Positions 1 to 14,616 of a stretch of 64,000 nucleotides of DNA are shown here, one piece after another. The translations under genes and the position numbers were made by a program. How positions within the stretch are numbered: position 1 is the first letter of the stretch; each line of letters starts with the position of its first letter. The stretch is from a virus: positions 41,275 to 105,274 of IMG/VR virus record IMGVR_UViG_3300001450_010303; one strand, written 5' to 3'. The notes below the pieces were generated by a model. The model made no database searches. It had not been told where the DNA came from and worked only from the letters and a program-made list of their open reading frames with translations.

Positions 1-504
1 GGTAGAACAAAAGTAGCAGGTGAGCGTGAATATAGAAACGTTGAAAATCATGTCACCTTTAGGTTAGCTACGGTATTCGGTCCCGGTTCTAGAATGAGAA
101 CCGACCTATTAGTTAATAACTTTGTTCTCAAGGCGCTTAGAGAACGCGTCCTGGTTCTCTACGAATGTGAATTTATGAGAAACTACGGACACCTCCAAGA
201 TGTATGCCGTGCTTTTAAGTGGGCTATTAACAATTGGGAAGTTGTCAAGAATGACACATATAATATGGGTAACGACTCGCTCAATATGAACAAACTTCAA
301 TTAGCACAAAAGATTCAAGAGCATCTTCCGCTAGAAATTATTAAAGCAGAATTCAACACTGATCCAGACACCCGCGATTATACAGTTAGCAGTCAAAAGT
401 TTTATGACACAGGTTTTGAGTGTAAATATGATTTAGACGATGGAATTAAACAGCTTATCACGGCATATAGTATTATTGAATCTCCGTGGTACGCAAATTA
501 CTAG
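1..504 (+). CDS. NAD-dependent sugar epimerase/dehydratase (extended SDR), 5'-truncated by window edge
   Basis: Frame is open from base 1 (GRTKVAGE...FRLATVFGPGSRMRTDLLVN). This is the tail of the YxxxK motif plus the RLATVFG/RMRxDLLVN segment typical of extended SDRs. Confidence 0.8.
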   Translation, partial: GRTKVAGEREYRNVENHVTFRLATVFGPGSRMRTDLLVNNFVLKALRERVLVLYECEFMRNYGHLQDVCRAFKWAINNWEVVKNDTYNMGNDSLNMNKLQLAQKIQEHLPLEIIKAEFNTDPDTRDYTVSSQKFYDTGFECKYDLDDGIKQLITAYSIIESPWYANY

Positions 505-511
505 GAAAATT

Positions 512-2023
512 ATGAGTAAAAAATTAGACGTTTTGTTCGTGCATCCAAATGGTGCTCCTATCATTTATCAAGAATTGTCAAAGACATACTCCGCGATAGA
601 ACCCCCCATTTGGGCAGCTTTATTAGCTAACAATGCCCGGGCAAACGGGTGGAATACCCAGCTAATTGATTGTGAAGCAGAACAACTGAATGCTTCAGAA
701 TCAGCAGAAGTAATAGGATCCTACAACCCAAAATTAGTTGCAATTGTAATCTATGGCCAACAACCATCAGCCTCCACACAAAATATGGCCGGCACCCGAG
801 CGCTCTTGGCAGAGATTCGGGCGTCACATGGCCATCTTAAAACTGTATTAATAGGTTTGCACCCATCAGCTGTATCTCGTCAAACATTATCAGAGGAACA
901 GACTGACTTTGTGTGCCAGGGGGAAGGTGTGCACACGGTTAATGCTTTGTTGAGTATCAATATGAATGATACCTCTCAATTGGCAACTGTGCCGGGTCTA
1001 TGGTATCGAGAAGACGGCAAAATTAGATGTACTAAACCAGCCCCAATTATTGCTCAAGAAGCTTTAGAAAAAGAACTTCCAGGTATGGCGTGGGACTTAT
1101 TGCCTATGGACAAATATCGAACTTCTAACTGGCATGCAATGACGAATGGGAATGATAGAGCGCCGTTTGCTTCTTTATATACTAGTTTGGGTTGCCCATT
1201 TCGTTGTAGCTTCTGCTGTATCAACGCCCCATTCGGAAACAATAATTTAGAGAATTGGGACACCGCCCGCAATAAGTTCAGATATTGGGATCCGGAATAC
1301 ATTATAAAGGAATTCGATCAGTTTCACAAGATGGGGATCCGCAATATAAAAATAGCAGATGAAATGTTCGTCTTATATAAAGATCACTTTATGAGGCTAT
1401 GTGAATTAATACATGAGAGGGGATACGACTTCAACATCTGGGCCTACTCTAGAATAGATACAGTTAAAGAAGAATATTTAGAGACACTCAAAAAAGCAGG
1501 GGTTAATTGGTTAGCTCTAGGAATAGAATCAGGAAACACGGCAGTTAGAAAAGATGTAACAAAGGGAAAATTTACGGATTTAAATATACGTGATTTAGTT
1601 GATAGAGTACAAGACGCTGGTATTAGTGTAATAGGAAATTATATATTTGGGCTACCCGAAGATACGATCGAAACAATGGAAGACACCTTATCTCTATCAA
1701 TGGAATTAAATTGTGAATTTTCAAATTATTATTCGGCCATGGCATACCCTGGATCAAAATTATATTTAGAAGCTTTAAAAGAAGGGTGGGAATTACCTGA
1801 CACCTATGTGGGTTATTCACAACATTCGTATGAAACTCAGCCACTCCCAACTAATCATATCTCAGCAGCCGAAGTATTAAAATTTAGAGATGAATCTTTC
1901 TTAAAATACTATAAAAATCCAAAGTATCTTGATATGATAGAAGAAAGATTTGGAAACAATACTCGTAGTGGTATCGAAGAGATGACTAAAATTAAACTAA
2001 AAAGAAAAATCTTAGGAGATTAA
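512..2023 (+). CDS. Cobalamin-binding radical SAM protein (class B methylase-like)
   Basis: CxxxCxxC motif (GCPFRCSFC) follows an N-terminal B12-binding-like domain (GLHPSA, VCQGEG); also LGIESG and YIFGLPED. Start placed at ATG 512 after the upstream stop. Confidence 0.85.
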   Translation: MSKKLDVLFVHPNGAPIIYQELSKTYSAIEPPIWAALLANNARANGWNTQLIDCEAEQLNASESAEVIGSYNPKLVAIVIYGQQPSASTQNMAGTRALLAEIRASHGHLKTVLIGLHPSAVSRQTLSEEQTDFVCQGEGVHTVNALLSINMNDTSQLATVPGLWYREDGKIRCTKPAPIIAQEALEKELPGMAWDLLPMDKYRTSNWHAMTNGNDRAPFASLYTSLGCPFRCSFCCINAPFGNNNLENWDTARNKFRYWDPEYIIKEFDQFHKMGIRNIKIADEMFVLYKDHFMRLCELIHERGYDFNIWAYSRIDTVKEEYLETLKKAGVNWLALGIESGNTAVRKDVTKGKFTDLNIRDLVDRVQDAGISVIGNYIFGLPEDTIETMEDTLSLSMELNCEFSNYYSAMAYPGSKLYLEALKEGWELPDTYVGYSQHSYETQPLPTNHISAAEVLKFRDESFLKYYKNPKYLDMIEERFGNNTRSGIEEMTKIKLKRKILGD

Positions 2024-2635
2024 GTGCTAACAAAAAAGGAATTAATACAATTTGAGACCAAAATGGCGACATGCTTTGACGACGCCATGATTCGCGCCCC
2101 CGTCCATCTTTACAACGGGAACGAAGATCAAATAATAAAAGTATTCAAGGATAACAATATTGGGCCAGAGGATTGGGTTTTATGTTCTTGGAGAAGCCAC
2201 TATCAATGCTTGCTTAAGGGAGTACCGCAAGATGAGCTTAAGGCGGCAATTTTGCAAGGGCGCTCTATTTCACTTTGTTTTGCAAAATATCGCGTCTTTT
2301 CATCTGGCATTGTAACTGGGGTTCTCCCAATTGCAACGGGGATTGCTCTAGACATCAAACGAAAGGCTGGTAAGAATAAGGTTTATTGTTTTATGGGGGA
2401 AATGACTTCCGAGACGGGTGTTGCTCACGAATGTATTAAATATGCCCGCAATCATGAACTTCCAATTCATTTTATTATTGAAGATAATGGCAAGTCAGTA
2501 TGTACTGACACCCGGGCCACATGGAACCAACAGAAACTTACTTATGAAGATGTTAATGATGAATATATTACATACTACAAATACAAACTAGACAAATATC
2601 CACATGCTGGAGCAGGGAAGAGGGTCCAATTCTAA
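2024..2635 (+). CDS. TPP-dependent enzyme, E1-alpha/transketolase N-terminal-like subunit
   Basis: HLYNGNE, WRSH, degenerate TPP motif GEM..ETG...IIEDN; GTG start after AGGAG. Confidence 0.75.
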   Translation: MLTKKELIQFETKMATCFDDAMIRAPVHLYNGNEDQIIKVFKDNNIGPEDWVLCSWRSHYQCLLKGVPQDELKAAILQGRSISLCFAKYRVFSSGIVTGVLPIATGIALDIKRKAGKNKVYCFMGEMTSETGVAHECIKYARNHELPIHFIIEDNGKSVCTDTRATWNQQKLTYEDVNDEYITYYKYKLDKYPHAGAGKRVQF

Positions 2636-3174
2636 TGGGAAAATATTTTGATGAACTAAAGAGAGCGATGGATTATCTTGGAGAACAAGAAGATACAATG
2701 TTTTTAGGACAAGCAGTTGCCTACAAGGGCACAGCGATGACTAACACCCTATCGGGAGTGCCAAAAGATAAATTATTAGAAATGCCGGTTGATGAAGAGA
2801 TGCAGATGGGTATGACCAATGGTTTAGCTATCAACGGAACAATCCCAATTAGTATATATCCACGATGGAATTTCCTTCTGCTAGCGGTTAATCAGTTGGT
2901 TAATCATCTTGATAGGATGAAAGAGTTTTCTCACGGAGAATACATCCCGAAAGCAATCATCCGCGTCGGCATCGGTTCTGTGCGACCTCTGAATCCCCAA
3001 GTTCAACATACGGGGGATTTCACTCAGATCTTCCGCGGAATGCTGAGGAACACAGAAGTTATCAAATGCGAAGAGCCAGAAGATGTCTTTCCAGCTTACC
3101 ACAAAGCATATAATCGAAGAGATGGGAAAAGTACTATAGTCGTAGAATATGGAGACTATTATGGAGAAAAGTAA
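2635..3174 (+). CDS. TPP-dependent enzyme, E1-beta/transketolase pyrimidine-binding subunit (short)
   Basis: LLEMPVDEEMQMGMTNGLA, NQLVNHLD, QH motif; coupled to the previous gene by TAATG. Confidence 0.75.
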   Translation: MGKYFDELKRAMDYLGEQEDTMFLGQAVAYKGTAMTNTLSGVPKDKLLEMPVDEEMQMGMTNGLAINGTIPISIYPRWNFLLLAVNQLVNHLDRMKEFSHGEYIPKAIIRVGIGSVRPLNPQVQHTGDFTQIFRGMLRNTEVIKCEEPEDVFPAYHKAYNRRDGKSTIVVEYGDYYGEK

Positions 3175-4120
3175 TCTTAAGGTCTTGTTCATAACAGAGA
3201 AATATTGTGATGCGGATCCACAAAAAGGTTTGACTAATAATTATCATAACTTGTTTAGAACTTTTAAGAATGTACTCCCAGAAGCAAATTTTAGTATCAT
3301 TCATATAGATGAATATTCTATAGTCAAGAAAAAACACATCGATAGTTTTATACCAACTGCTGTAGATAAGGTTTCACCGGATGTAGTTATTTTTTCGCTA
3401 CTTGGAAAATCACACCTGAATCCGACTGATGACAGCTATGAATATATTAAGAGTAAGGGCTGCAAAACAGTATTCATGTGGCCGGATGTGTTTGCAGGGT
3501 GGGGAATCCCAGAGATTGAGGAAATGAATGAGAAGGGTTTCGCTGATTTACATGTGTGTTGGGGATCTGAAAGAAATACTAATAAACAATACGATAATTT
3601 AATTTGGCTCTGGGCTCCTCAAGACGAAACTCTTTACCACCCAATCGATTCATCCGAAAAAAGTATAAATACTAGTTTCTTGGGCAGCCCAAGATATGAA
3701 GAGAGACAAAGATATCTAACTCATTTGATAACTAATAAAATTCAAGTACATATAGGCGGAGGCCAAAGAGAGGAGGGCTTATCGGCAGCCAGATATGCTG
3801 AATTAATGAGACATAGCAAAATTAGTTTGAACTTTCCAGGAGGTCCAGAGGGCAATGACCAATGCAAAGGAAGGGTCTGGGAAGTTTTGGCAACAAAGTC
3901 TCTTTTGTTGGAAAGAACAAACGATGCAATAAAAAACTATCTAATACCAAATGTACATTACGTCGAATTTGACAACGAGCAAGATCTAATAGAGAAAATT
4001 AAGTATTACTTGGAAAACGAAAAAGAAAGGGAATACATCGCTCAAAAAGGCTATGAGATATATAAGGACAAATATAATGCAGAAGTATTCTGGAACACAA
4101 TTATGGAGAAGTTAGGATGA
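3161..4120 (+). CDS. Glycosyltransferase, GT-B fold (CgeB/YkvP, Glyco_trans_1_2-like)
   Basis: SFLGS..Y.ER, SKISLNF, KGRVWE, LIEKIKYYL.NEKERE.IAQKGY; GGAGA SD before ATG 3161. Confidence 0.75.
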   Translation: MEKSNLKVLFITEKYCDADPQKGLTNNYHNLFRTFKNVLPEANFSIIHIDEYSIVKKKHIDSFIPTAVDKVSPDVVIFSLLGKSHLNPTDDSYEYIKSKGCKTVFMWPDVFAGWGIPEIEEMNEKGFADLHVCWGSERNTNKQYDNLIWLWAPQDETLYHPIDSSEKSINTSFLGSPRYEERQRYLTHLITNKIQVHIGGGQREEGLSAARYAELMRHSKISLNFPGGPEGNDQCKGRVWEVLATKSLLLERTNDAIKNYLIPNVHYVEFDNEQDLIEKIKYYLENEKEREYIAQKGYEIYKDKYNAEVFWNTIMEKLG

Positions 4121-4956
4121 GTTATAAATATGATGTATCCATTCTCATGCCAGCAATCAGAACACACCAATGGTTGATGTTATATGGAAGCTTATACAAC
4201 GCATGTAGAGAGCATTCATGGGAGTTGGTTTTGGTGAGTCCGTTTGACTTACCACCGGAGATGACACATTTTGATAATGTTAAGTTAATTAAAGACTATG
4301 GCGCCCCCACCCGAGCGGCACAAATTGGTGCTATACAGTGTGAAGGCGAATTTATGTATCACTGTGTTGATGACGCAATCTTTTTACCGGATGTGATCGA
4401 TGGCGCTATAAAATTCCTAAGAGAACAAAACAATAAAAAACTTGTTGTCAATATGAGATATAGAGAAGGCGCCCAATACGGCGGTGGCACTTTACCAGGA
4501 CAATTTTGGCTAGCCCACTATCACGAAGAATTAAGGTTAGCCGGCATTCCAAAAGATTACAAGATTTCGTGCCACCACTTTATGAGAATGGATTATTTTA
4601 AAGAGTTAGGCGGTTGGGACTGCAAATATGAATATATTAATCACCCATTGCATGACCTTATGTTTAGGGTACAAGCCGACGGTGGCCGCCTGGTTGATTC
4701 GCCCATGGATGCAACAACCTGCAACCACTATATTAACAAGACCGGCGATCACGCCCCAATTTATGATGCACAAACCTTTAGTGACAAACCAGTGTTTGAT
4801 GCAATTTACTCTCAACCCGGCAATGCCGCCGCCAGTAGAATACATATTGATTTAAATAATTGGCAACAGTCCTCTCCTATATGGAAACGTAGATTCAAAT
4901 ATGATGAAGAAGGTAACTTGCCTGAAAGTTATGATGACTTAGGATATAACAAATGA
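4117..4956 (+). CDS. GT-A (GT2-like) glycosyltransferase, paralog 1
   Basis: VSILMPAIR start, DD motif, ELGGWD...HDL..R; clearly homologous to the ORFs at 7646 and 8434. Confidence 0.7.
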   Translation: MSYKYDVSILMPAIRTHQWLMLYGSLYNACREHSWELVLVSPFDLPPEMTHFDNVKLIKDYGAPTRAAQIGAIQCEGEFMYHCVDDAIFLPDVIDGAIKFLREQNNKKLVVNMRYREGAQYGGGTLPGQFWLAHYHEELRLAGIPKDYKISCHHFMRMDYFKELGGWDCKYEYINHPLHDLMFRVQADGGRLVDSPMDATTCNHYINKTGDHAPIYDAQTFSDKPVFDAIYSQPGNAAASRIHIDLNNWQQSSPIWKRRFKYDEEGNLPESYDDLGYNK

Positions 4957-5738
4957 AAGTAGGAATTGTTGGAGTAGGCGTAGTCGGCGCCGCTTGCAAA
5001 TTTGGATTTGAATTGGTTGGACATAACGTTTCAATCCACGATATAATTTATGATACGACACTAACAGATGTACTAGACACAGAAATCGTCTATATATGCG
5101 TTCCTACCCCTCAAGCAGAGGATGGAGCATGTGACGTCAGTATAGTCCGCGAAGTCGTTCTAGAGCTAAAAGAACGCGGCTATAATGGTATTGTAGCCCT
5201 CAAGTCGACGGTTGTGCCTGGAACCACTCAATCGCTGCGAGAAGAAACGGGCCTGAATGTCTGTTTCGTACCAGAGTTTTTGCGAGAGCGCTGCGCCATC
5301 ACTGACTTCACAGAGAACCATGATGTTTGTATAATAGGCTGCAGCGACGATAAAACATATGAGCTTATTAAAAGCTGTCATGAGCCGCTACCAGAAAAGT
5401 TTGTTAAACTGACACATGCGGAAGCAGAATTTTGTAAGTATTTCAACAATGTATACAATGCGATGTTGATTATTTTTGCTAATAGTTTTTATGAGGCCTG
5501 TAAGAATAATGGTGTTAATTATACGAATGTTAAAAACGCTGTGTCAAATAGAAAGCATATCCACGGCCATTACCTTGAGTGTAATGACAACTTCCGCGGT
5601 TTTGGCGGCATGTGTTTGCCAAAAGATGTGTCAGCAATGGCAAAACTAATGGAAAGTACCACTGTTGATTTCTTCGAAGATCTTTTAGACGAAAATAGCA
5701 AATATAACATTACAGTGTTTGAAGGAATGAGAAAATGA
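4953..5738 (+). CDS. ugd: UDP-glucose/GDP-mannose 6-dehydrogenase (short form)
   Basis: GVGVVG Rossmann motif, ICVPTP, KSTVVPGTT, PEFLRE, catalytic GFGGMCLPKD. Confidence 0.85.
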   Translation: MKVGIVGVGVVGAACKFGFELVGHNVSIHDIIYDTTLTDVLDTEIVYICVPTPQAEDGACDVSIVREVVLELKERGYNGIVALKSTVVPGTTQSLREETGLNVCFVPEFLRERCAITDFTENHDVCIIGCSDDKTYELIKSCHEPLPEKFVKLTHAEAEFCKYFNNVYNAMLIIFANSFYEACKNNGVNYTNVKNAVSNRKHIHGHYLECNDNFRGFGGMCLPKDVSAMAKLMESTTVDFFEDLLDENSKYNITVFEGMRK

Positions 5739-6634
5739 TCTCTAATCGTTATGGGTTTATTTTTATTCACACCCCCAAGACCGGTGGTACATCTGTGCTA
5801 ACAGCCCTTCACGAAGATACAGACAGAGAATGCCACATTCATATGGAACAGGAAGTTTCCGGCGGCATTGCGGCCGTGCTCCCAGGAAAAAAAGATTTTC
5901 CTTGGTGGGGAGCTTGGATTCAACAACAAAGACAGATAGAAGAATACTTTAAACGTAATGGTATAGCTCAACTTTTTCTTGATCCTGCTACGGCAGTTTT
6001 TAGTCACTCTACCACGACGTCCAACGTAGGTGGAGGAAACATCAAACACTTGCCTATTAAATATTGGGCTATGTTATTAGCAGATCAAAGATTACAATCC
6101 TATGGTAGTTTTTTAGAAAATTACGGAATTGTAACCACATGTCGTAACCCTTACAATCGTGAATTTTCAAAGTTTATTTACACGCAGCGACCGGATATCT
6201 TAACTATGATTTCTTATTGTAAACAAAGAGGCTTCTCCAATGAACAAGTTTCGAAAAAACTACAAAGTAATTGGCGCCAGTGGGCTTCTATAAATTTAAG
6301 ATCCACCCCTGATAGCAATAAAACGAATCTGTTCAACACCCAATGTGATTTTTATAGTAGTATAGATAATTCTCCCAATTTGCAATACTTCGGTACTGAC
6401 AAACCTTTTTTTATTCGGCTTGAACACATGGAAGAAGATTATAATAAATTTTGTAAGATGGTAGGAATAAAAAGAAAAACTACTAAAATGCCACATAATC
6501 TGAATACCTCTGGTGAATTTAAAGAATATTTGCCTGACAATATATTAGAGTGGTATGTGGGAGAACCATTCAACTTAATTCACGAGTCTCGAAAAGAAGA
6601 TTTTGAGTTGTTACCATATGAAAAGGAGGTTTAA
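5735..6634 (+). CDS. Sulfotransferase family 2 protein
   Basis: 5'-PSB motif FIHTPKTGGTS, 3'-PB motif RNPYNREFS, IRLEHMEED, C-terminal EDFELLPY. Confidence 0.75.
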   Translation: MISNRYGFIFIHTPKTGGTSVLTALHEDTDRECHIHMEQEVSGGIAAVLPGKKDFPWWGAWIQQQRQIEEYFKRNGIAQLFLDPATAVFSHSTTTSNVGGGNIKHLPIKYWAMLLADQRLQSYGSFLENYGIVTTCRNPYNREFSKFIYTQRPDILTMISYCKQRGFSNEQVSKKLQSNWRQWASINLRSTPDSNKTNLFNTQCDFYSSIDNSPNLQYFGTDKPFFIRLEHMEEDYNKFCKMVGIKRKTTKMPHNLNTSGEFKEYLPDNILEWYVGEPFNLIHESRKEDFELLPYEKEV

Positions 6635-6635
6635 A

Positions 6636-7649
6636 ATGAAAAAGGTTTTAATTACAGGTAGCCAAGGTTTTATTGGCTCATATCTATGTACCGAATATTT
6701 GGACAAGGGGTATCAAGTTGTCGGCATTGATAACTTTTCAAAATACGGCCCAATCTCCCGCCCCCATGATAACCATGTAAATTTCGAACTAATTGAGATG
6801 GACATAATCGATGTAAAAACATCAGAGATTCCACCGACTCTAAAAGATGTAGATTACATTATTGCGGGTGCTGCTATGATCGGTGGTATTACATACTTTC
6901 ACAAATATGCTTATGATCTGTTGGCAACAAATGAAAGAATTTTAGCCTCTACATTTGATCTAGCGATAAAGCTCAACAAATTTCATAGTTTGAGACGAAT
7001 CGTAGTATTGTCTAGTAGCATGGTTTTTGAGAATACAACTGTATATCCAACTCCAGAGAGTGAAATTAAGACATGTGCCCCACCGCTAAGTACATACGGG
7101 TTTCAAAAATTAGCCGTTGAATATTTTTGTAAAGGAGCCTACGAACAATACAAGCTACCTTATACAATAATACGTCCTTTTAATTGTGTTGGTGTTGGAG
7201 AGGAAGACGCCATTGGAGAACATGAAGTTAAATCTGGAAACATTAAACTCATGATGAGTCATGTCCTGCCGGATATCGTTAATAAAATTATGAAGGGACA
7301 AGACCCTTTACATATCCTTGGTTCAGGCGAACAGATACGCTGTTACACAAATGGAAAAGACATCGCCCGAGGAATACGGATGTGCATGGAAAGTTCAGCC
7401 GCGATAAACGAGGATTTCAATATCTCAATATCTCAGCCAACATCAGTAATAGAGTTAGCTAAGGTAGTATGGGGTATTTTAAACCCAGGAAAAGAATTCA
7501 CGTTTGTTTCTGATAAAGCATATGAATATGATGTGCAAAGGCGTATTCCAAATACTAATAAGGCAAAAGAAATGTTAGGGTTCGAGGCACAGATTGGTCT
7601 GATAGAATCTGTGCGAGAGGTTATAGAATATATGAGAGGTAAAACGTGA
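6636..7649 (+). CDS. NAD-dependent epimerase/dehydratase (UDP-glucuronate decarboxylase-like)
   Basis: TGSQGFIG, SSS, YGFQK, RPFN..G, GSGEQIRC; AAGGAGG SD before ATG 6636. Confidence 0.8.
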   Translation: MKKVLITGSQGFIGSYLCTEYLDKGYQVVGIDNFSKYGPISRPHDNHVNFELIEMDIIDVKTSEIPPTLKDVDYIIAGAAMIGGITYFHKYAYDLLATNERILASTFDLAIKLNKFHSLRRIVVLSSSMVFENTTVYPTPESEIKTCAPPLSTYGFQKLAVEYFCKGAYEQYKLPYTIIRPFNCVGVGEEDAIGEHEVKSGNIKLMMSHVLPDIVNKIMKGQDPLHILGSGEQIRCYTNGKDIARGIRMCMESSAAINEDFNISISQPTSVIELAKVVWGILNPGKEFTFVSDKAYEYDVQRRIPNTNKAKEMLGFEAQIGLIESVREVIEYMRGKT

Positions 7650-8434
7650 AAAAACCAGAGATATCACTTATATTACCGAGCATCAGAACAGAACGATTAC
7701 CAAAATTATATGAATCAATCCTTAGTTCAACCAGTCGCGACTTCGAGTTAATAGTATGCGGCCCTAATCCATTACCAGAGGAGTTAAAAGAAGAAAAAAA
7801 TGTCAAATACGTAAAGGATTATGGCTCACCAGTCCGTGCATCTAATATAGCTGCTTCTCTATGCGAAGGAGAAATATATACTTGGTTGGCAGATGACTGT
7901 CTATTTTTTGAAAATTCACTTGACACATGTATAGAAGCATATTATAATATGGGTGCGGCTAAAAACAACGTCCTCGTTGCAAAGTATTTCGAAGGACAAA
8001 ACGGCTCCCTCGAACGGAGTACGTTACAGCCAGATAGCTATTTTAGAATTAATGGAACCCCCGCAGCTTCAGAACACATTCCAAATGACTGGTGGTTATT
8101 TAATATAGCTTTTATGAGATCTAATTTTTTTAATGAACTGGGTGGATGGGATTGTTCGTACGAGGGAACATGGGCCTCCCATGCTGACATGGCCATTAGA
8201 GCCCAATATCTTGGCGCCAACGTCAAGATGGCAGATATCCCATTATTTGAGTGTGACCACATGCCTGGCGGCACCGGAGACCACATGCCAATCTTTATTT
8301 GCCAACATGAACATGACGAGCCATTACTACAACAAAGATACAGAGATCCAAACTGGACTGTTAATATAAATCCAAAACTTAAACTAGAAAACTGGAAAAA
8401 CGCACCTGCAGTGTGGAAGAGGAGATTCAAATAA
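7646..8434 (+). CDS. GT-A (GT2-like) glycosyltransferase, paralog 2
   Basis: ISLILPSIR, KDYGSP, ADD, ELGGWDC, GDHMPI, VWKRRF. Confidence 0.7.
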   Translation: MKKPEISLILPSIRTERLPKLYESILSSTSRDFELIVCGPNPLPEELKEEKNVKYVKDYGSPVRASNIAASLCEGEIYTWLADDCLFFENSLDTCIEAYYNMGAAKNNVLVAKYFEGQNGSLERSTLQPDSYFRINGTPAASEHIPNDWWLFNIAFMRSNFFNELGGWDCSYEGTWASHADMAIRAQYLGANVKMADIPLFECDHMPGGTGDHMPIFICQHEHDEPLLQQRYRDPNWTVNINPKLKLENWKNAPAVWKRRFK

Positions 8435-9210
8435 TGCATTACGACCTATCAATTTGCTTACCTGCCCACAGAACACATCTATGGAAAAGGTTATATGATA
8501 CTGCAGCTGAAGCTGTTGGCCCAAATCATACTTGGGAAATGATCTTAGTTGGCCCCAATGAACCACCAGAAGAGCTAGCTAAGAAGAATAACTTTAAATT
8601 TTTTAAAGATTACGGTACTCCATCTCGTTGCGCTCAAATAGCAACAACTTTAGCTGAAGGAGAACTAATGATGTGGGGCTCGGATGATGGATATTTTCTT
8701 AAGGATTCAATTGGTGAATGTATTGAAATACATAAAAATCTACCATTTAAGGATGCGATAATTATAAAATATGCAGAAGGTCGTGATATTAGCGGAAAAT
8801 GTCCCGAAGATAGCTATTGGACTGCTTGGACTCACCCGGACTTACGTTTGCCAGGAGTTCCAAAAGACTATAAAATAACTCTTTTAGCAATGTATAAATT
8901 AGAATATTTTAGAGAATTAGGTGGCTGGGATTGTAGGTTTGAACATTTAAATATGAATACACATGATTTATCCTTCAGGGCTCAGCGAAATGGAAGTAAA
9001 ATACACTTCTCTCCAAACCTCGTCCTAACATGTGATTGGAACCCAAATGAGGGCGACCATATACCAGTACAACAAGCTTATCATGCCAATGACGCACCCC
9101 TGTTTAGGAATATGTATATGCAAGATCAATCGGAAAGAATCAAAATTGATTACTTTAATTGGGCTAAAAGCCCACCGGTTTGGAAAAGAAGATTCGGAGA
9201 AGAAAAATGA
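8434..9210 (+). CDS. GT-A (GT2-like) glycosyltransferase, paralog 3
   Basis: LSICLPAHR, KDYGTP, SDD, ELGGWDC, GDHIPV, VWKRRF; TAATG coupling. Confidence 0.7.
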   Translation: MHYDLSICLPAHRTHLWKRLYDTAAEAVGPNHTWEMILVGPNEPPEELAKKNNFKFFKDYGTPSRCAQIATTLAEGELMMWGSDDGYFLKDSIGECIEIHKNLPFKDAIIIKYAEGRDISGKCPEDSYWTAWTHPDLRLPGVPKDYKITLLAMYKLEYFRELGGWDCRFEHLNMNTHDLSFRAQRNGSKIHFSPNLVLTCDWNPNEGDHIPVQQAYHANDAPLFRNMYMQDQSERIKIDYFNWAKSPPVWKRRFGEEK

Positions 9211-10136
9211 AAACCATCTTAGTAACAGGTGGCCGCGGCCTAGTAGGATCTGCTATCCGCAGCATCAGCACCTTATATCCACAATATAACTTTGTCTTTT
9301 CAGGACACAAAGAACACGATCTGACTGTTGAAGAAGACGTAAAGAGATTATTTGAAGAGGTTAAACCAGCTTTCGTAATCCATGCGGCGGCGCGCGTTGG
9401 AGGAATAGGGAGAAACTTAAACTCCCCAGCGCAACAATATTACAGCAACATTTTAATGAATGCGTTTGTAATACACCACGCTCAGTTAAATGGAGTAGAG
9501 AAATTATTAGCATTCTCATCAGTGTGTGCTTTCCCAGCCGGCTCCAAAAACATTCACGAAGACATCCTACACGATGGAGAGCCATATCCTGCTCATTACT
9601 CTTACGCGTATTCCAAGAGAATGGTAGATGTCCAGATCCAGGCATATAAACAACAACACAAAGTTAATTATTGTTCTGTGATCCCGGGAAACATCTTTGG
9701 TGAGAATGATAACTTTAATTTAGAAGATGGCCACGTAGTTCCATCATTGGTGCGAAAGTGTTTTCACGCAAAACAGACAAATACTCCACTGCAAGTATGG
9801 GGTGATGGAACACCATATCGCGAGTTCTTATATGCTAAAGATGTTGCAAAAGCTTGTATAGAATTAATAGAAAAACCAGGCGAACTTCCGCTGAGAGTCA
9901 TTGTCTCCGGACAAGAAGAAACACAGATTAAAGACCTAGTGAAATTAGTTTGCGATGCCACAGGTTATCATGATGTTGAGTGGCTAACAGATAAGCCTAA
10001 CGGACAGATGCGCCGACCAACAAACAAAGATGTTTTTAATAAAGCACTTCCAGATTTCGAATATACAGATTTAGAGACCGCTATGAAAAACACCGTAAAT
10101 TGGTTCGAGGAGAACTACCCAAACGTGAGACTATGA
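9207..10136 (+). CDS. fcl: GDP-L-fucose synthase / GDP-colitose synthase (Fcl/WcaG/ColC family)
   Basis: TGGRGLVG, HAAARVGGI..N, SSVC, YAYSK, PGNIFGENDNF, HVVPSL, VWGDGTPYREF. Confidence 0.88.
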   Translation: MKTILVTGGRGLVGSAIRSISTLYPQYNFVFSGHKEHDLTVEEDVKRLFEEVKPAFVIHAAARVGGIGRNLNSPAQQYYSNILMNAFVIHHAQLNGVEKLLAFSSVCAFPAGSKNIHEDILHDGEPYPAHYSYAYSKRMVDVQIQAYKQQHKVNYCSVIPGNIFGENDNFNLEDGHVVPSLVRKCFHAKQTNTPLQVWGDGTPYREFLYAKDVAKACIELIEKPGELPLRVIVSGQEETQIKDLVKLVCDATGYHDVEWLTDKPNGQMRRPTNKDVFNKALPDFEYTDLETAMKNTVNWFEENYPNVRL

Positions 10137-11104
10137 AAAAAGCTTTAATTACAGGAATAAATGGCCAAGATGGCTCATACCTAGCAGAGCTTCTTTTAGA
10201 GAAGGGATATGATGTGCATGGGATCGTTAGAAGGAACTCAATACCAGAGAATCAAACAGCCAGGATCCAACACATATATGAAGATATCAAAAATAATTTA
10301 TATCATGCTGATGTGTGCGATATGTCTTCATTATTATCTATAATTAATAAAACAAAGCCTGATGAAATTTATAACTTAGCAGCCCAAAGCCATGTTAGAA
10401 TTAGTTTTGATCAGCCAAGCTATACCCTCGATACAATTGGTACCGGAACACTTAATTTATTAGAGGTTATACGCTTGGTCAGTCCGGATACTAAACTATA
10501 TCAGGCCTCAAGCTCAGAGATGTTCGGAAATTCCATAGATCCGGACGGATTTCAACGTGAATCAACACCAATGAATCCGGTAAGTCCATATGCTTGCGCC
10601 AAACAGTTAGCCTATAACCTCGTAAGGTGTTATAGAGATTCATATAATTTATATGCATCAAACGGCATTTTATTTAATCATGAATCACCCCGCCGCGGCG
10701 GCAACTTTGTAACCAACAAAATAGTGATTGGGGCTGTAAAGATAAAAAAGGGATTGCAAGATAAATTGGCGTTAGGAAATTTAGACTCCACAAGAGATTG
10801 GGGACATGCGAAAGATTACGTTAAAATAATGTGGCAGATTATGCAGCTGGAGCATCCCAGTGATTATGTGTGTGCAACAGGAAAATCTCATTCAGTCAGA
10901 GAATTTGTAGATCTTACTTTTAGTAAGTTAGATCTGGATTATAAGGACTATGTTATCCAAGATCCTCGATTTTTCCGCCCTAACGAATTGCATGACCTGA
11001 AAGGAGACACCGCTAAACTAAAAGAAGCAATAGACTTAAAATTTACATATACATTTGATATAATGATAGATGAGATGATTGATTATTGGATGGAGAAACT
11101 ATAA
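10133..11104 (+). CDS. gmd: GDP-mannose 4,6-dehydratase
   Basis: ALITGINGQDGSYLAELLL, YNLAAQSHV, YQASSSEMFG, SPYACAK, NGILFNHESPRRG, RDWGHAKDYV. Confidence 0.95.
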   Translation: MKKALITGINGQDGSYLAELLLEKGYDVHGIVRRNSIPENQTARIQHIYEDIKNNLYHADVCDMSSLLSIINKTKPDEIYNLAAQSHVRISFDQPSYTLDTIGTGTLNLLEVIRLVSPDTKLYQASSSEMFGNSIDPDGFQRESTPMNPVSPYACAKQLAYNLVRCYRDSYNLYASNGILFNHESPRRGGNFVTNKIVIGAVKIKKGLQDKLALGNLDSTRDWGHAKDYVKIMWQIMQLEHPSDYVCATGKSHSVREFVDLTFSKLDLDYKDYVIQDPRFFRPNELHDLKGDTAKLKEAIDLKFTYTFDIMIDEMIDYWMEKL

Positions 11105-11656
11105 ATGGTTAAATTAAACCTTGGTTGTGGAGATAGAAAAATCCATGGGTTTATAAATGTTGATGCACGCGAAGATGTTTCACCTGATGTAATATGCGAT
11201 GTGACTAAAATACATGAAAAATTCAGAGATGCAGACATTATATATGCATGCCACGTATTAGAACACTTCCCAACAAAACCATTTACATTCCAAAAAATCA
11301 CATGGGAAGAAGTGCTGCTTAGTTGGTTTCTGGCTTTGAAGCCTGGTGGAAAACTCAGGGTTTCAGTCCCTGATATTCGGGCTGCTTGTGAATATTATTT
11401 ACGAACTAATGATTTTGAGAGCGTAAGAGCGTTTTTTTATGGAGGACAAAAATATGATTTTGATTTTCATTATCATGGGTGGTCTGAAGAAACACTTACA
11501 AAGGCACTCAAGAAAATTGGTTTTACGAAAGTAGAAATATATGATTGGAAGACAACTGAGCACTTTTATATTGATGATTATAGCCAAGCATATTTGCCAC
11601 ATATGGATAAAACAAATGGCAAGCTGATGAGCTTAAACATAGAAGCAACAAAATAA
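11105..11656 (+). CDS. Class I SAM-dependent methyltransferase
   Basis: LNLGCG, HVLEH, LKPGGKLRVSVPD. Confidence 0.8.
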   Translation: MVKLNLGCGDRKIHGFINVDAREDVSPDVICDVTKIHEKFRDADIIYACHVLEHFPTKPFTFQKITWEEVLLSWFLALKPGGKLRVSVPDIRAACEYYLRTNDFESVRAFFYGGQKYDFDFHYHGWSEETLTKALKKIGFTKVEIYDWKTTEHFYIDDYSQAYLPHMDKTNGKLMSLNIEATK

Positions 11657-11666
11657 GGAAATTAAA

Positions 11667-12830
11667 ATGGACATTACTTACCCGCTAGCAAAAGAGACTA
11701 TCAATGATGAAGATATCAATGCACTTTGTGATTGGTTGAAGGGTTACCCTCGCCTGACCAAAGGTGATCTTACATGGAAAGTAGAAGAGGACTGGGCGAA
11801 ATACATAGGAACCTCCTATTCTGTTTTTAATAATTCAGGATCGTCCGCCAATCTACTCATGGTCGCCGCGGCAATACAGTGCGGCCGTATCGCGAACAAA
11901 AAGATTGTAATTCCCTCAGTCGGCTGGGTTACTACGGTCGCACCAGCAATGCAACTTGGTTTAGAACCAATAATGTGTGGTGCCGATCCAGAGACATATG
12001 GTATGGATTTAGACCAACTTGAGACAATATGCGAAGAGCATAACCCTGACGCCGTGATGTTCGTCCAAGTATTGGGAATACCACACCATAAAGAGCGCCT
12101 GCTGGCTCTCAAAGAAAGATATGGATTCACCCTCTTAGAAGACGCATGCGCCGCTCTGGGAGCATCCTACAACGATGGAGCGATGGTAGGAACTATAGGA
12201 GACATGTCGACATTCTCATTCTATTTTGGCCACCAGTTATCAACCATCGAAGGTGGAATGGTTAATACTAATGACAAAGAACTATATGATATGTTATTGA
12301 TGCTCCGGAGCCATGGCTGGGCAAAAGATTTAGACGAAGAAACGCGCAATAAAATGATGACTGACCATGGTGTTGATGACTTCCACTCCCCATTTACCTT
12401 TTTTATCCCAGGATATAATCTGAGATCCACCGATCTTCAAGCATTTTTAGGAATAAGACAAATTGAAAAGGCTGAATGGGCGGCAACAAACCGAAATACG
12501 AACCATAAACTATATGCAGAAAAACTAGAAGGGGTGGTAGAATTTCAAAGATGGGGTGAAAATAATCCTGTTTCTATCTCTTTCGGAGCCCTCGCAAGAA
12601 GCACGGTACAAAGGAAAGAAATAGTAGATAGATTGGTAGAGAATGGTATAGAAACAAGGATCTTCAGCGCTGGAAACCTTGGCCGCCACCCATTTTGGAC
12701 TGATAAATACCCAGTTTTTAAAGATAGGGTGAGTGATAAAATACACGCGTGTGGATTCTTTTTGCCTAACTATCCTGAACTAACTGAAAAAGAAATTGAC
12801 TTTATTTGTAATGTTGTTAAAGGAGTTTAG
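11667..12830 (+). CDS. PLP-dependent DegT-family enzyme, ColD-like (GDP-4-keto-6-deoxymannose 3-dehydratase)
   Basis: NSGSSANL, LLEDAC, SFYFGHQLSTIEGG with His at the usual Schiff-base Lys position, LRSHGW, GYNLRSTD. Confidence 0.8.
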   Translation: MDITYPLAKETINDEDINALCDWLKGYPRLTKGDLTWKVEEDWAKYIGTSYSVFNNSGSSANLLMVAAAIQCGRIANKKIVIPSVGWVTTVAPAMQLGLEPIMCGADPETYGMDLDQLETICEEHNPDAVMFVQVLGIPHHKERLLALKERYGFTLLEDACAALGASYNDGAMVGTIGDMSTFSFYFGHQLSTIEGGMVNTNDKELYDMLLMLRSHGWAKDLDEETRNKMMTDHGVDDFHSPFTFFIPGYNLRSTDLQAFLGIRQIEKAEWAATNRNTNHKLYAEKLEGVVEFQRWGENNPVSISFGALARSTVQRKEIVDRLVENGIETRIFSAGNLGRHPFWTDKYPVFKDRVSDKIHACGFFLPNYPELTEKEIDFICNVVKGV

Positions 12831-13567
12831 TGCGTATCTTGGTCATAGGAGAGAGTTGTAAAGACATTTACCAATATGGTGATTGTGTAAGACTGTGCCC
12901 CGAGGCGCCAGTCCCTGTTTTTAGAAGCGGAAATCTAAAGACTGAGAACCCAGGAATGGCGAAAAATGTTTGGCGGAACATAAAATCTTTAGTAGATTTT
13001 GATGTCGATATAGAGACTAATAAAAACTGGCTTAGTATCACTAAGACTAGATGCGTCGATAATAGAACAAATTATATCATAGTCCGCATCGATGAAGGAG
13101 ATGATGGTTACTCTCGGTGTGATGTAAAAAGTATCGAGTACCATAAATACGATGTCATAGTTATATCGGATTACAATAAAGGATTTTTAACAGAGTCAGA
13201 TATCGAATATGTTTCCAATCAACACTCGACTACTTTTTTAGATACGAAAAAGATACTCGGAGAATGGTGTAAAAAAATCAAGTTTATTAAAATAAATGAA
13301 TTTGAATACGAGAGAACAAAGCACAAATTGACACCAGAACTAATCGAAAAGATGATAATAACTCTCGGACCCAATGGAGCAAGACACAAAGGTATTGGAT
13401 TTCCAGTACCAAAGGTAGAAATAAAAGACACTTCAGGCGCCGGCGATACGTTTGTTGCAGCATTAGCCTCGTCTTATGCGACAACAAAAGACATTTTTAA
13501 AGCAATTGAATTTGCAAATGAAAATGCTACTAAAGTTGTCCAGCGAAAGGGCGTAAGTACTATATGA
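12830..13567 (+). CDS. PfkB-family sugar-phosphate kinase, HldE/RfaE kinase-like
   Basis: RLCPEAPVPV, ISDYNKG, DTSGAGDTF, VVQRKG. Confidence 0.85.
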   Translation: MRILVIGESCKDIYQYGDCVRLCPEAPVPVFRSGNLKTENPGMAKNVWRNIKSLVDFDVDIETNKNWLSITKTRCVDNRTNYIIVRIDEGDDGYSRCDVKSIEYHKYDVIVISDYNKGFLTESDIEYVSNQHSTTFLDTKKILGEWCKKIKFIKINEFEYERTKHKLTPELIEKMIITLGPNGARHKGIGFPVPKVEIKDTSGAGDTFVAALASSYATTKDIFKAIEFANENATKVVQRKGVSTI

Positions 13568-13959
13568 CTAAAGCTGTCTGGACCAATGGATGTTTTGACA
13601 TATTACACCGCGGCCACATTGAAATGCTTCAATATGCTAAATCTTTGGGCGACTGTTTAATAGTTGGAATTGATTCAGATGCAAAAGTAAAGTCAGACAA
13701 GGGCGTAGAAAGGCCATATAACAATGAAATAGATAGAAAATTTATGTTGAAAGCAATAAAATTCGTTGATGAGGTGGTTATATTTGATTCGGCTATTAAG
13801 TTAGAAAACTTGATAGAAAACATAGCACCATATTACATGGTTATAGGATCTGATTGGAAAGGAAAAAAAGTTGTAGGACAACAACATTGCAAAGAGCTTA
13901 AATTTTTTGATAGAATCAGTAGCTATTCAACAACAAATATACTGGAGAATAATAGATGA
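13564..13959 (+). CDS. Nucleotidyltransferase, HldE/RfaE adenylyltransferase-like
   Basis: TNGCFDILHRGH, LIVGIDSD, KG..RP, GSDW, YSTT. Confidence 0.85.
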   Translation: MTKAVWTNGCFDILHRGHIEMLQYAKSLGDCLIVGIDSDAKVKSDKGVERPYNNEIDRKFMLKAIKFVDEVVIFDSAIKLENLIENIAPYYMVIGSDWKGKKVVGQQHCKELKFFDRISSYSTTNILENNR

Positions 13960-14291
13960 CATATGTATTTGATATTGATGGCACCTTATGTATAAAAGAT
14001 GCGTCAGCGCCTTATAACGACGCTTCGCCCCTACCTCAGAGAATTAACATGGTGAATAATTTATATGATGCCGGCCATACTATAATAATGCAAACCGCCC
14101 GCGGAATGGGAAGACATAATAATAACCAACAACTTGCAGTACAACAATTTTACGCGCTAACGGCGGAACAACTTAAGGATTGGGGAGTTAAATATCACCT
14201 TTTATTTTTAGGAAAGCCGGCAGGAGATATTTATATAGATGATAAGGGGATTAAAGATGAAGACTTCTTTACCGATGATACACGTCAATAA
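13956..14291 (+). CDS. HAD-superfamily phosphatase (capsule-biosynthesis type)
   Basis: FDIDGTL, TARG, GKP..DIYIDDK. Confidence 0.8.
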   Translation: MTYVFDIDGTLCIKDASAPYNDASPLPQRINMVNNLYDAGHTIIMQTARGMGRHNNNQQLAVQQFYALTAEQLKDWGVKYHLLFLGKPAGDIYIDDKGIKDEDFFTDDTRQ

Positions 14292-14616
14292 AGGCTGGGG
14301 CTGGGAACGATGGATTGTTAACAATGAGGAATATTGCGGAAAATTGTTATTCTTTAATAGTGGGAAAAAATGCTCATGGCATTACCACAAATTAAAAGAC
14401 GAAGTATTCTATCTACAATCTGGGAAAATGATGATATACTATTCAGATGAAGATGATTTATCTGAAGCGATACAACTGGAATTAAACCCAGGAGATAACT
14501 TTCATGTATATCGAGGGCTTAGGCATCAAATGCTAGCCATAGAAGATTCAGAATTATTTGAATTTTCAACACAACACTTTGATTCAGACAGCTATAGAAT
14601 TTTAAAAGGAGATTAA
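14257..14616 (+). CDS. Cupin-fold sugar isomerase-like protein
   Basis: KGWG.E, CSWHYHKLKDEVFYLQSG, G..H cupin motifs; exact start uncertain (14239/14257/14275). Confidence 0.7.
   Translation: MKTSLPMIHVNKGWGWERWIVNNEEYCGKLLFFNSGKKCSWHYHKLKDEVFYLQSGKMMIYYSDEDDLSEAIQLELNPGDNFHVYRGLRHQMLAIEDSELFEFSTQHFDSDSYRILKGD

Follow-up and report, generated by a model that had tools for sequence, protein, structure and literature searches.

The genome of a large, uncultured aquatic phage contains a gap-free cluster of about 20 kb with approximately 25 sugar-making genes, and the sequence gives about an even chance that this system attaches glycans to virion proteins of the phage itself, in the cytoplasm and with no need of a lipid carrier; candidate acceptors are predicted. 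The cluster encodes seven glycosyltransferases (GTs), enzymes for three routes to sugar nucleotides, and tailoring enzymes for methylation and sulfation. The window (the whole stretch analysed, 64,000 nucleotides) belongs to a 105-kb contig that is only about 57% complete (CheckV). Larger than earlier noted, the cluster starts at genome position 35910 (window -5364), approximately 5.4 kb ahead of the window, the edge of which cuts it. Window positions 1-14616 are filled by 19 ORFs on one strand (+), with every junction abutting or overlapping (gaps of -65 to +10 nt), in agreement with the at least 19 coupled same-strand genes of the preliminary description. The chimeric junction near 14.6 kb that would have undermined that description was not observed: window 6375-27477 has a colinear counterpart, 97.8% identical, on a contig from another IMG/VR record, and both borders of the island are spanned in relatives.

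Upstream of the window, the cluster comprises two GT4 enzymes, GT4a (L003 3911-5245; Pfam 'GT4-conflict' 6.8e-8, above cut-off) and GT4b (L003 5221-6504; the same family at 1.6e-3, below cut-off), a 552-aa GT2 (L003 6497-8155), a 136-aa ORF (L003 8148-8558), and an Mpo1-like ORF (L003 8551-8853), which is the sole likely membrane protein of the cluster (Kyte-Doolittle 1.87). The window opens with the C-terminal part (1-504) of a 309-aa NDP-sugar SDR of the 4,6-dehydratase/epimerase-like type, the gene start of which lies 425 nt ahead of the window; the full ORF matches Pfam Epimerase (1.4e-30) and the NCBIfam dTDP-glucose 4,6-dehydratase (7e-24). The adjoining B12-binding radical SAM enzyme (440-2023; Pfam Radical_SAM 6e-22, B12-binding 3e-14) has HpnJ and BchE as top NCBIfam matches, all far under their cut-offs, and likely C-methylates or rearranges a sugar. 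A split ThDP enzyme (2024-3174), composed of a 203-aa E1-alpha-like and a 179-aa E1-beta/PYR-like subunit, matches Pfam E1_dh (4e-11), Transket_pyr (4e-6) and the NCBIfam PDH E1 alpha model (2e-23) and may introduce a C2 branch into a keto-sugar. The ThDP genes accompany SDR and radical SAM genes in loci L011-L015.

The four GTs announced for the window, together with the sulfo-, methyl-, radical SAM and TPP enzymes, agree with the family assignments. One GT (3149-4120) is of the Glyco_trans_1_2 type with a GT-B C-terminal domain (Pfam PF13524, 4e-19). The others are three GT-A-like paralogs (4117-4956, 7646-8434 and 8413-9210), assigned by their paralogy and by their joint profile, which matches PDB GT-A transferases (5tze, 2e-4); the first is 42% identical to the third and 33% to the second, and the second also has a below-cut-off match to Pfam Glycos_transf_2 (0.0056). 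No convincing transmembrane segment was found in the GTs or sugar enzymes by Kyte-Doolittle analysis, as the preliminary description had proposed for the GTs; the highest 19-residue mean is 1.81, in the ThDP E1-alpha subunit.

Between and behind these GTs lie further donor-sugar and tailoring genes. A short (261 aa) protein resembling UDP-glucose and other NDP-sugar dehydrogenases (4953-5738) has the N-terminal and central domains (Pfam UDPG_MGDP_dh_N 2.5e-17, central domain 2e-16; NCBIfam NDP-sugDHase 1e-39, below cut-off) and lacks the C-terminal domain; this short form is retained in L012 at 77% identity. The next ORF (5735-6634) is a probable sulfotransferase. It gives no match in a Pfam search; the assignment relies on an N-terminal FIHTPKTGGTS loop and on the closest ESM Atlas clusters, 'Sulfotransferase family' (0.97, 203/256 features shared; PF03567 in 25% of members). 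Sulfotransfer_2 occurs in three island proteins of relatives. A 348-aa SDR (6603-7649; Pfam Epimerase 2e-36) is an NDP-sugar epimerase/dehydratase. The GDP-4-keto-6-deoxymannose epimerase/reductase (9180-10136; Fcl/ColC-like) matches PDB GDP-L-fucose synthase (6e-69) and NCBIfam Fcl (6e-61, under the equivalog cut-off), and the following gene encodes GDP-mannose 4,6-dehydratase (GMD; 10100-11104; Pfam GDP_Man_Dehyd 1.4e-114, TIGR01472 1e-119). A SAM-dependent methyltransferase (11105-11656; Pfam Methyltransf_23 3e-7) precedes a ColD/E1-type PMP-dependent NDP-4-keto-6-deoxyhexose 3-dehydratase (11667-12830), which matches ColD over its full length (PDB 2gms, 2e-53) and has a His aligned to ColD His188, where aminotransferases have the PLP lysine. 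The last four genes (12830-14616) form a sugar-activation module of PfkB kinase (HldE domain I-like; NCBIfam rfaE_dom_I 7e-29), nucleotidyltransferase (HldE domain II-like; rfaE_dom_II 4e-35), small HAD phosphatase (NCBIfam capsule phosphatase 8e-8) and cupin. The cupin exhibits a weak likeness to L-ribose and D-lyxose isomerases (0.003-0.08) and is possibly a sugar-phosphate isomerase. The four genes stay together in L019, L029 and L039. Genes for GDP-mannose and PAPS supply were not found in the 105-kb contig (about 57% complete), so the pathway is not self-contained.

Comparison of 84 loci divides the cluster into two parts, a core (PD-(D/E)XK nuclease, GT4a, GT4b and usually the GT2) and a hypervariable sugar island. 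The nuclease, GT4a and GT4b were found in 70, 81 and 82 of the 84 loci, respectively, and every sugar gene outside this triad is patchy. The core recurs in over 500 IMG/VR loci and extends to cultured phages that infect Flavobacterium and Microcystis (Bacteroidota and Cyanobacteria) and, weakly, Rhodothermus; Rhodothermus phage RM378 has GT4a and a weakly similar neighbour. Full-length GT4b is absent from all isolate genomes among 185,579 species searched. Outside viruses it occurs only in MAG contigs whose taxonomy is incoherent, probably phage contigs picked up in binning. An E-x7-E motif is invariant or nearly so in both GT4a and GT4b. The best PDB fold match of both is chlorovirus NY-2A B736L (5e-21 and 2e-16), and among viral models, those of giant viruses, uncultured tailed phages and archaeal filamentous viruses match GT4b best; such fold matches to viral GTs identify no acceptor. 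In L020 and L023, GT4b and the GT2 form a single fusion protein, and in L017 the fusion partner of GT4b is the N-terminal domain of the GT2. These fusions suggest that both enzymes act on one acceptor.

The island measures 0.3 to 6.3 kb in relatives, compared with 17.6 kb here. Because the GT pair directly adjoins the block leading into the baseplate genes in eight loci, the island represents an insert at the junction between the pair and that block. The preliminary description had placed baseplate genes on the same strand at about 2 kb; the strand is right, and the HMM-recognisable genes lie 11 kb downstream (gp25-like wedge gene, 25672-26040, +, PHROG 261 7e-20; gp6-like wedge gene, 26056-27852, +, PHROG 219 9e-18). 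The intervening small ORFs (14619-18638, +) start with a 67-aa ORF after the island, a Zn-ribbon protein (14824-15078) and a TM protein (15065-15406). A conserved 234-aa sigma-like protein (15369-16073) follows, and 102-, 360- and 387-aa ORFs with no family assigned extend to 18638. The block that is conserved ahead of the baseplate genes in all relatives begins at 15369, and in immuto and Mel-JY01, the nearest cultured relatives of the contig, and in LR756508, a homolog of the 234-aa protein precedes the baseplate wedge gene by approximately 4.5 kb. The GTs have lost their adjacency to the baseplate genes in immuto, Mel-JY01 and LR756508.

Two tail/fibre proteins of 684 and 3485 aa (27852-40353, +) are candidate glycan acceptors. 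Against composition-shuffled counts, the motif [ST][GAS]S occurs 15 versus 4.9 times (z 4.7) and 44 versus 13.6 times (z 8.2), respectively. Two further candidate ORFs (53737-54849 and 54874-56172) have z values of 5.3 and 5.0. The motif is enriched only in these four tail/fibre proteins, whereas z has a median of -0.3 across 105 ORFs; the motif may be a mere structural feature of fibre repeats. If virion proteins are glycosylated, outward-facing tail and fibre proteins are the most likely acceptors. The virus-specific retaining GT4a and GT4b, with the neighbouring GT2, would attach the initial sugars to the phage protein. The strain-specific island would then make the donor sugars, and the Glyco_trans_1_2 enzyme and three GT-A paralogs would extend the chain. 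GMD and the ColD-like and Fcl/ColC-like enzymes could convert host GDP-mannose to GDP-L-fucose and/or a colitose-type GDP-3,6-dideoxyhexose. Cupin, kinase, phosphatase and nucleotidyltransferase could provide an ADP-heptose-like NDP-sugar, and the SDR, B12 radical SAM enzyme and split ThDP enzyme could form a C-branched or C-methylated sugar. O-methylation and sulfation would finish the chain.

Virion-protein glycosylation is the best reading because the five lipid-carrier families searched for are absent from the contig and 37 related records, tyrosine integrase is absent from the five complete or CheckV-100% relatives, and immuto virion DNA has no glycosylated nucleoside. It is also supported by the soluble GTs, the virus-restricted core pair kept across host phyla and the structural proximity to a chlorovirus GT. 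The earlier proposal of a cytoplasmic, lipid-carrier-independent pathway fits all tests; its virion-protein target is supported in part. Two points weigh against that target: the cluster does not adjoin the tail module in the three relatives named above, and the phage might draw on the Und-P, Wzx and WaaL machinery of its host to change the host surface. Alternatively, phage NDP-sugars might be added to host Und-PP-linked or lipid A-core intermediates, which host flippase, ligase and transport would carry outward; the infected cell surface would then be altered, for example so that superinfection is blocked and progeny are not wasted on debris. Cyanophage 'LPS' genes are usually explained in this way. 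For the present cluster we consider the host-surface reading unlikely, although it draws on several features. The predicted sugars (fucose/colitose, heptose-like) and the enzymes encoded correspond to those found in O-antigen loci, the island is hypervariable like such loci, peripheral GTs require no TM anchor, and GMD is 48-50% identical to that of the clusters of cyanophages P-SSM2, S-CAM7 and S-SCSM1. The authors interpreted these clusters as cell-surface modification (PMC12801897), an interpretation that is itself putative. Three of these points also count against virion glycosylation: soluble GTs are normal in O-antigen/LPS assembly on Und-PP, the host could provide the initiating transferase, flippase and ligase, and colitose, fucose and heptose are classic O-antigen/LPS sugars. 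Against a host-surface target, the export and initiation genes reported missing from the window are missing more widely: Wzx, Bac_transf, Wzy_C/WaaL, Glycos_transf_4 and ABC2_membrane were not found in the 105-kb contig (about 57% complete) and 37 related records, which include immuto, Mel-JY01 and five complete or CheckV-100% relatives (three of them CheckV-100% genomes), and the positive controls gave matches in 9-14 of the 14 cellular genomes. The core GT pair persists in phages whose hosts differ greatly in their envelopes, and isolate bacterial genomes lack it. Tyrosine integrase was not found in the five complete or CheckV-100% relatives, which indicates that the relatives are probably lytic and makes serotype conversion in a lysogen unlikely.

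A cytoplasmic acceptor other than a virion protein, namely a non-structural phage protein, a host protein (takeover/anti-defence) or a small molecule, with the island diversifying the donor sugar, is more doubtful still. The GT4 fold matches include the small-molecule transferases BshA, MshA and a tetrahydrobiopterin GT, the 'GT4-conflict' matches point the same way, and a sigma-70-like promoter directly upstream of the nuclease gene would suit early/middle expression; however, the promoter count is not above that in shuffled sequence. An island that combines several GTs with deoxy, branched, methylated and sulfated sugars implies that the product is a complex, exposed oligosaccharide rather than a lone regulatory sugar, and the extreme diversity of the island is hard to square with an intracellular target. 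It is highly improbable that the GTs build a glycan onto phage DNA bases as a hypermodification against restriction, like T4 alpha/beta-GT or the diverse glycans reported on 5-hmC DNA. The GT pair always follows the PD-(D/E)XK nuclease, its conserved neighbour, and in RM378 lies amid replication genes; both would suit a nucleic-acid target and count against a virion-protein one. There is precedent for phage GT clusters that decorate DNA (Pyle et al. 2024, cited in PMC12619734). The DNA target that the preliminary description had kept as an alternative is nevertheless weakened, because immuto virion DNA contained only dA, dC, dT and fdPreQ1 (324 Da) by LC-UV-MS/MS, with no glycosylated nucleoside (PMC10516641), and no thymidylate-synthase-family (ThyA-type) hydroxymethylase was found in the contig, Mel-JY01 and three CheckV-100% relatives. 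T4-type alpha- and beta-GT families were not found in a search run without a positive control, and an island of up to 17 kb with seven GTs far exceeds the needs of any known DNA glycan.

Among known systems, chloroviruses and giant viruses share virus-encoded, host-independent glycosylation, with B736L (PDB 3oy2) as the best solved fold match of both GT4 enzymes and giant-virus GTs ranking first in the viral fold search. These viruses also have their own NDP-sugar pathways. They differ in having eukaryotic hosts, and sequence identity to B736L is only 13-17%; B736L is not known to have an established acceptor. According to the summary in PMC12619734, phage-encoded GTs O-glycosylate mycobacteriophage virions (Freeman et al. 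2023). As described there, these GTs are likewise phage-encoded, soluble and cytoplasmic in a bacterial host, and the acceptors proposed here are also exposed virion proteins. The summarised system uses one to a few GTs and host sugar nucleotides, in contrast to seven GTs and about 18 synthesis/tailoring genes here. Its glycans, proven by MS, sit at the C-termini of capsid and tail-tube subunits, whereas the putative acceptors here belong to the tail/fibre proteins and have the S/T-small-S motif internally.

Bacterial O-antigen/capsule loci (e.g. E. coli O55/O111 colitose) resemble the cluster in their GMD-ColD-ColC and HldE/GmhB-like heptose logic, in having multiple GTs and in being hypervariable from strain to strain; unlike Wzx/Wzy- or ABC-transporter-dependent loci, the searched records of this phage lineage yielded none of the five tested export/initiation families. 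The marine cyanomyoviruses P-SSM2, S-SCSM1 and S-SCSM2R carry 'LPS / cell-wall synthesis and modification' clusters (PMC12801897), which are similarly large GT blocks with GMD and epimerases in lytic marine myoviruses, with functions that are putative there and here. The present cluster belongs to a different phage lineage, is anchored by a conserved virus-specific GT4 pair, and is distinguished by its radical SAM, ThDP, ColD and sulfotransferase content and by an island at a fixed genomic junction.

The sugar genes belong to one operon that extends beyond the window. Within the window, 19 ORFs occupy positions 1-14616 and all junctions abut or overlap, which bears out the gapless same-strand cluster of the preliminary description. 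The bounds given there hold for the gene block but not for its start, since the window edge cuts the cluster, which continues gap-free upstream. This upstream part comprises two GT4 glycosyltransferases (GT4a, 444 aa; GT4b, 427 aa), a 552-aa GT2, a 136-aa ORF, an Mpo1-like ORF and the remaining part of an SDR; it is preceded by a PhoH-PIN protein and a PD-(D/E)XK nuclease. Because the operon runs gap-free past the window start, the sugar block was set at positions 35910-55890 of the 105-kb record (G000); it spans ~20 kb and 25 genes, including seven GTs. The enzyme classes listed earlier were recovered by family searches, and no convincing TM helix was observed in any GT or sugar enzyme of the cluster, as had been claimed for the GTs. 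Virion glycosylation is known in mycobacteriophages, and phage-encoded soluble GTs, of which there are seven here, none with a TM segment, are a feature of that type of system. The combination of NDP-sugar synthesis genes and several GTs in one operon is a feature of surface-polysaccharide loci.

The record, whose final 64 kb make up the window, is 105,274 bp in length, ~57% complete (CheckV) and without a terminal repeat, and every gene lies on the + strand. On the basis of the primase and the baseplate wedge protein, its closest cultured relatives are Flavobacterium phage vB_FspM_immuto (31–37% identity) and Microcystis phage Mel-JY01; LR756508, a 484-kb phage, is an uncultured relative. No match to window 1-15000 was found by megablast among 50,697 phage records. 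Another IMG/VR record contains a contig that is colinear with window 6375-27477 at 97.8% identity. This contig and the relatives span both island borders and the GC content is even across the region, so a chimeric contig is ruled out; in particular, the junction near 14.6 kb considered earlier was not found.

Several island ORFs were placed by indirect comparisons. Those starting at window positions 4117, 7646 and 8413 are mutual paralogs (33–42% identity) with absent or sub-threshold Pfam matches, and their joint profile matches GT-A transferases in the PDB. The ORF at 5735 carries a PKTGGTS loop, and its closest ESM Atlas clusters are sulfotransferases. With E values up to 5, five ORFs had no Pfam match (those at 4117, 5735 and 8413, and the 360-aa and 387-aa ORFs), and the last two had no tblastn match in phages. 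PHROGs matched none of the ORFs that separate the island from the baseplate genes. An NDP-sugar dehydrogenase-like protein of 261 aa (window 4953-5738, +) is devoid of the C-terminal nucleotide-sugar binding domain; this short form is kept in one relative (locus L012, 77% identity), and full-length UGDH occurs in other relatives.

The nuclease and the GT4 pair form a conserved core. When all cluster proteins were compared with 84 related loci by tblastn, the nuclease was detected in 70/84, GT4a in 81/84 and GT4b in 82/84, the shortfall being probably due mostly to contig truncation. GT4b is carried by more than 500 IMG/VR loci. The E-x7-E residues typical of GT4 enzymes are invariant or nearly so in both proteins (39–44 homologs), and AlphaFold2 models both with high confidence (pLDDT 88.9 and 92.7). 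The closest solved structure to both is the chlorovirus NY-2A glycosyltransferase B736L (5e-21 and 2e-16); for GT4b, the second-best solved structure is four orders of magnitude weaker. The best predicted viral structures for GT4b are GTs from giant viruses, uncultured tailed phages and archaeal filamentous viruses. Kinship with the GtfA/GtfB type, which acts on serine-rich-repeat adhesins, was considered; GtfA and SdgB appear only at ranks 27 and 42 of the fold list, and membership is therefore not claimed. Five relatives encode GT4b as a 666–693-aa fusion (L017 10627-12708; L020 4166-6166; L023 9977-12019; L025 8963-10993; L027 5871-7901). The extra part resembles the catalytic domain of GT2 in L020 and L023 and the N-terminal domain of the same GT2 protein in L017.

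The core appears to be restricted to viruses. In a search of genomes from 185,579 prokaryote species, all full-length GT4b homologs lay on MAG contigs whose taxonomic labels are incoherent, and the isolate genomes in this set contain just partial C-domain matches. These MAG contigs (L092-L133) are probably mis-binned phage contigs. Their labels include Woesearchaeota, Pelagibacter, Thaumarchaeota, Methanobacteriota and Flavobacteriales, among others, and one of them lies in a 2.8-Mb 'WOR-3' chromosome (CP070664.1).

The genes that follow the core are highly variable. Across the same 84 loci, GMD and ColD/DegT were each found in 21, GT2 in 19, the radical SAM enzyme in six, the ThDP enzyme in four and the sulfotransferase-like protein in none. 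The order nuclease-GT4a-GT4b-GT2-variable sugar genes is common to immuto and Mel-JY01; in Rhodothermus phage RM378, the gene after GT4a is a GT4b-like ORF of weak similarity, and sugar genes are lacking. In eight loci, the homolog of a 234-aa protein (window 15369-16073) lies within ~0.3 kb after GT4b, and baseplate genes come next in the six whose contig is long enough. In other loci, an island of 3.2–6.3 kb separates the two genes; the 17.6-kb island of G000 is the largest among the closed islands seen. In this clade, the island thus sits where the GT pair leads into the baseplate genes; in immuto, Mel-JY01 and LR756508, the GTs and the tail module are no longer adjacent.

The 451 island ORFs of the relatives formed 294 clusters. 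Among 148 cluster representatives assigned with Pfam, the prevailing families were NDP-sugar SDRs, GT2, GMD, DegT, FkbM and other methyltransferases, UGDH, sulfotransferases, C-methyltransferases and ThDP enzymes. In comparisons with five loci (L019, L024, L026, L034 and L039), identity to the G000 counterparts (window 13956-14616; L003 8148-8558, in the locus holding the upstream part of the cluster) is 69–88% for the cupin and the 136-aa ORF and 45–62% for the HAD phosphatase, whereas GT4b identity is only 34–55%. Values of 73–79% (cupin and HAD phosphatase) and 74–88% (136-aa ORF), against 42–47% for GT4b, were also obtained between relatives. Some sugar modules are therefore far better conserved than the core, a pattern that points to lateral exchange and suggests, from these identities, that modules have recently passed between phages.

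The predicted chemistry of the G000 island is elaborate. Judged by homology, the GMD assignment is unambiguous (TIGR01472, 1e-119, 399.5 bits against a cut-off of 415; Pfam, 1.4e-114). The 'DegT' protein matches E. coli ColD (2gms) over its full length (2e-53), with a His aligned to ColD His188, the position of the PLP lysine in aminotransferases; by this alignment, it is a ColD-type PMP-dependent 3-dehydratase. The SDR adjoining these genes is Fcl/ColC-like (6e-69 to GDP-fucose synthases in the PDB), ColC and GDP-fucose synthase not being separable by sequence. Given these three enzymes, the expected product is GDP-L-fucose and/or a GDP-3,6-dideoxyhexose of the colitose type. The final four genes resemble a split HldE (kinase rfaE_dom_I, 7e-29; nucleotidyltransferase rfaE_dom_II, 4e-35; both under the NCBIfam equivalog cut-offs) with a small HAD phosphatase and a cupin. 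No SIS match that would indicate GmhA, the sedoheptulose-7-P isomerase, was found in any cluster ORF with Pfam or NCBIfam; the cupin, which is weakly similar to sugar ketol-isomerases, occupies its place in the module. These four genes stay together in relatives, as do the SDR, the B12 radical SAM enzyme and the split ThDP E1 alpha/beta enzyme, which by inference yield a C-branched or C-methylated sugar.

Neither a ManC-type NTP_transferase nor an APS kinase was found on the 105-kb contig. Self-sufficiency of the pathway on this contig is therefore rejected, and GDP-mannose and PAPS would be supplied by the host or by genes in the portion of the genome that the contig lacks. In G026, a CheckV-100% relative, an APS kinase and two NTP_transferase-family proteins are present (G026:C1:170483-170884, 130542-131111 and 140702-141364), and some members of the lineage thus have their own genes for the sulfate donor and for sugar-1-P activation.

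Glycosylation of virion proteins in the cytoplasm is the best available reading of this system; it is unproven, and we hold it about as probable as all else combined. It is favoured because the core is virus-restricted yet kept across host phyla, because the core GT fold is akin to that of GTs from virion-glycosylating viruses, because the extreme diversity of the island fits an exposed structure, and because in this clade the island occupies the junction with the tail genes. In addition, only four tail/fibre proteins contain more [ST][GAS]S motifs than their composition-shuffled expectation (15 observed vs 4.9 expected, 44 vs 13.6, 10 vs 2.3 and 9 vs 2.1; z 4.7 to 8.2, for which a structural cause is possible), the median z over 105 ORFs being -0.3. 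Remodelling of the host surface through host machinery is a less probable account that we nevertheless take seriously: peripheral GTs working on Und-PP intermediates are likewise without TM anchors, and sugars of the kinds predicted here are well known from O-antigens. Against it stands the lack of a phage-encoded route outward. We searched 38 records, namely G000, the near-identical contig, immuto, Mel-JY01 and 34 further related records (three of them CheckV-100%). The initiating polyprenyl-phosphate sugar transferases Bac_transf and Glycos_transf_4 (WecA/MraY type) gave no match in any of them, with controls positive in 9–12 of 14 genomes; nor did Polysacc_synt (Wzx), ABC2_membrane or Wzy_C (Wzy/WaaL/PglL), with PF13440, PF14296 and EpsG outside the search and controls for all five families positive in 9–14 of 14 genomes. 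The absence first reported for the window hence extends, for these five families, to the rest of the ~57% complete contig and to 37 other records, and to this extent profile searches exclude a phage-encoded export route. Lysogenic serotype conversion is also unlikely, as no tyrosine integrase was found in five complete relatives.

Phage DNA is a highly improbable acceptor, because the nucleosides of immuto virions are unglycosylated and the usual hydroxymethyl-pyrimidine route is missing. LC-UV-MS/MS of virion DNA from immuto, a relative of G000, recovered dA, dC, dT and fdPreQ1 (324 Da), none of the nucleosides being glycosylated (PMC10516641). No thymidylate-synthase-family dCMP/dUMP hydroxymethylase was found in G000, Mel-JY01 or the three CheckV-100% relatives; an enzyme of this family was found in immuto and one further record (G020) only. 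T4-type DNA GT families were not found either, in a search run without a positive control. Some other cytoplasmic acceptor is a minor prospect, less probable than the host surface and more so than DNA. Returning to virion proteins, the virus-only GT4a/GT4b(/GT2) module would prime a chain on tail/fibre proteins, and the hypervariable, laterally exchanged island (0–18 kb) would extend it. More tentatively, at somewhat less than an even chance, an aquatic myovirus lineage that numbers over 500 contigs and whose hosts range from Bacteroidota to Cyanobacteria may coat its tail/fibre proteins with strain-specific complex glycans. Such glycans would define phage 'serotypes', a counterpart of bacterial O-antigens, and G000 would have the most elaborate version among the closed islands seen, with deoxy, heptose-like, branched, methylated and sulfated sugars.

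Large sugar clusters are known from marine phages (PMC12801897), as are core GTs in 'moraphages' (PMC12619734). What is new is a two-part architecture, in which a virus-only, putatively priming GT pair is joined at a fixed junction to a hypervariable island without lipid-carrier genes, and which spans a very widespread aquatic lineage. To our knowledge, the sugar clusters of ocean phages have been read for twenty years as host-surface tools, a reading never put to the test. If this lineage glycosylates its own tails, virion glycosylation would be a common, fast-evolving trait beyond some mycobacteriophages, and this would matter for host recognition, for how stable and sticky particles are in seawater, for grazing and decay, and for the annotation of auxiliary 'LPS' genes in viromes. 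The question is directly testable because cultured members exist (immuto and Mel-JY01). The conserved GT4 pair provides a simple marker for systems of this type, and the ColD-type dehydratase, the split ThDP and B12 radical SAM enzymes and the cupin replacing GmhA are a source of unusual sugar chemistry.

Counts of sigma-70-like and terminator-like sites were no higher than in shuffled sequence, and no clear late-promoter pattern emerged from TATAAATA and other AT-rich motifs. One near-consensus sigma-70-type promoter (TTGACA, 17 nt, TATATT; 11/12) at L003 3135-3163 (+) adjoins the 5' side of the nuclease gene, with which the gap-free operon of nuclease, GT and sugar genes begins. The 234-aa conserved protein at window 15369-16073 (+) contains a (near-)invariant block (consensus GxKAFSYFNVVAKNWLI) in which a likeness to sigma-70 region 2 can be seen by eye. 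Among named ESM Atlas clusters, the closest to this protein is viral and is called 'RNA polymerase sigma factor family' (0.97), with Sigma70_r2 present in 21% of its members. In immuto, Mel-JY01 and LR756508, homologs of the protein lie ~4.5 kb 5' of the gene for the baseplate wedge. By these resemblances the 234-aa protein may be a late sigma factor; there was no Pfam, PHROG or PDB profile match, and because the PDB profile search was empty this reading is treated as a lead only. A phage tmRNA was detected with ARAGORN at L002 8285-8630 (+), that is, genome positions 28285-28630, ~12.6 kb before the window, and encodes the tag peptide ANNNNNFESVRLAA.
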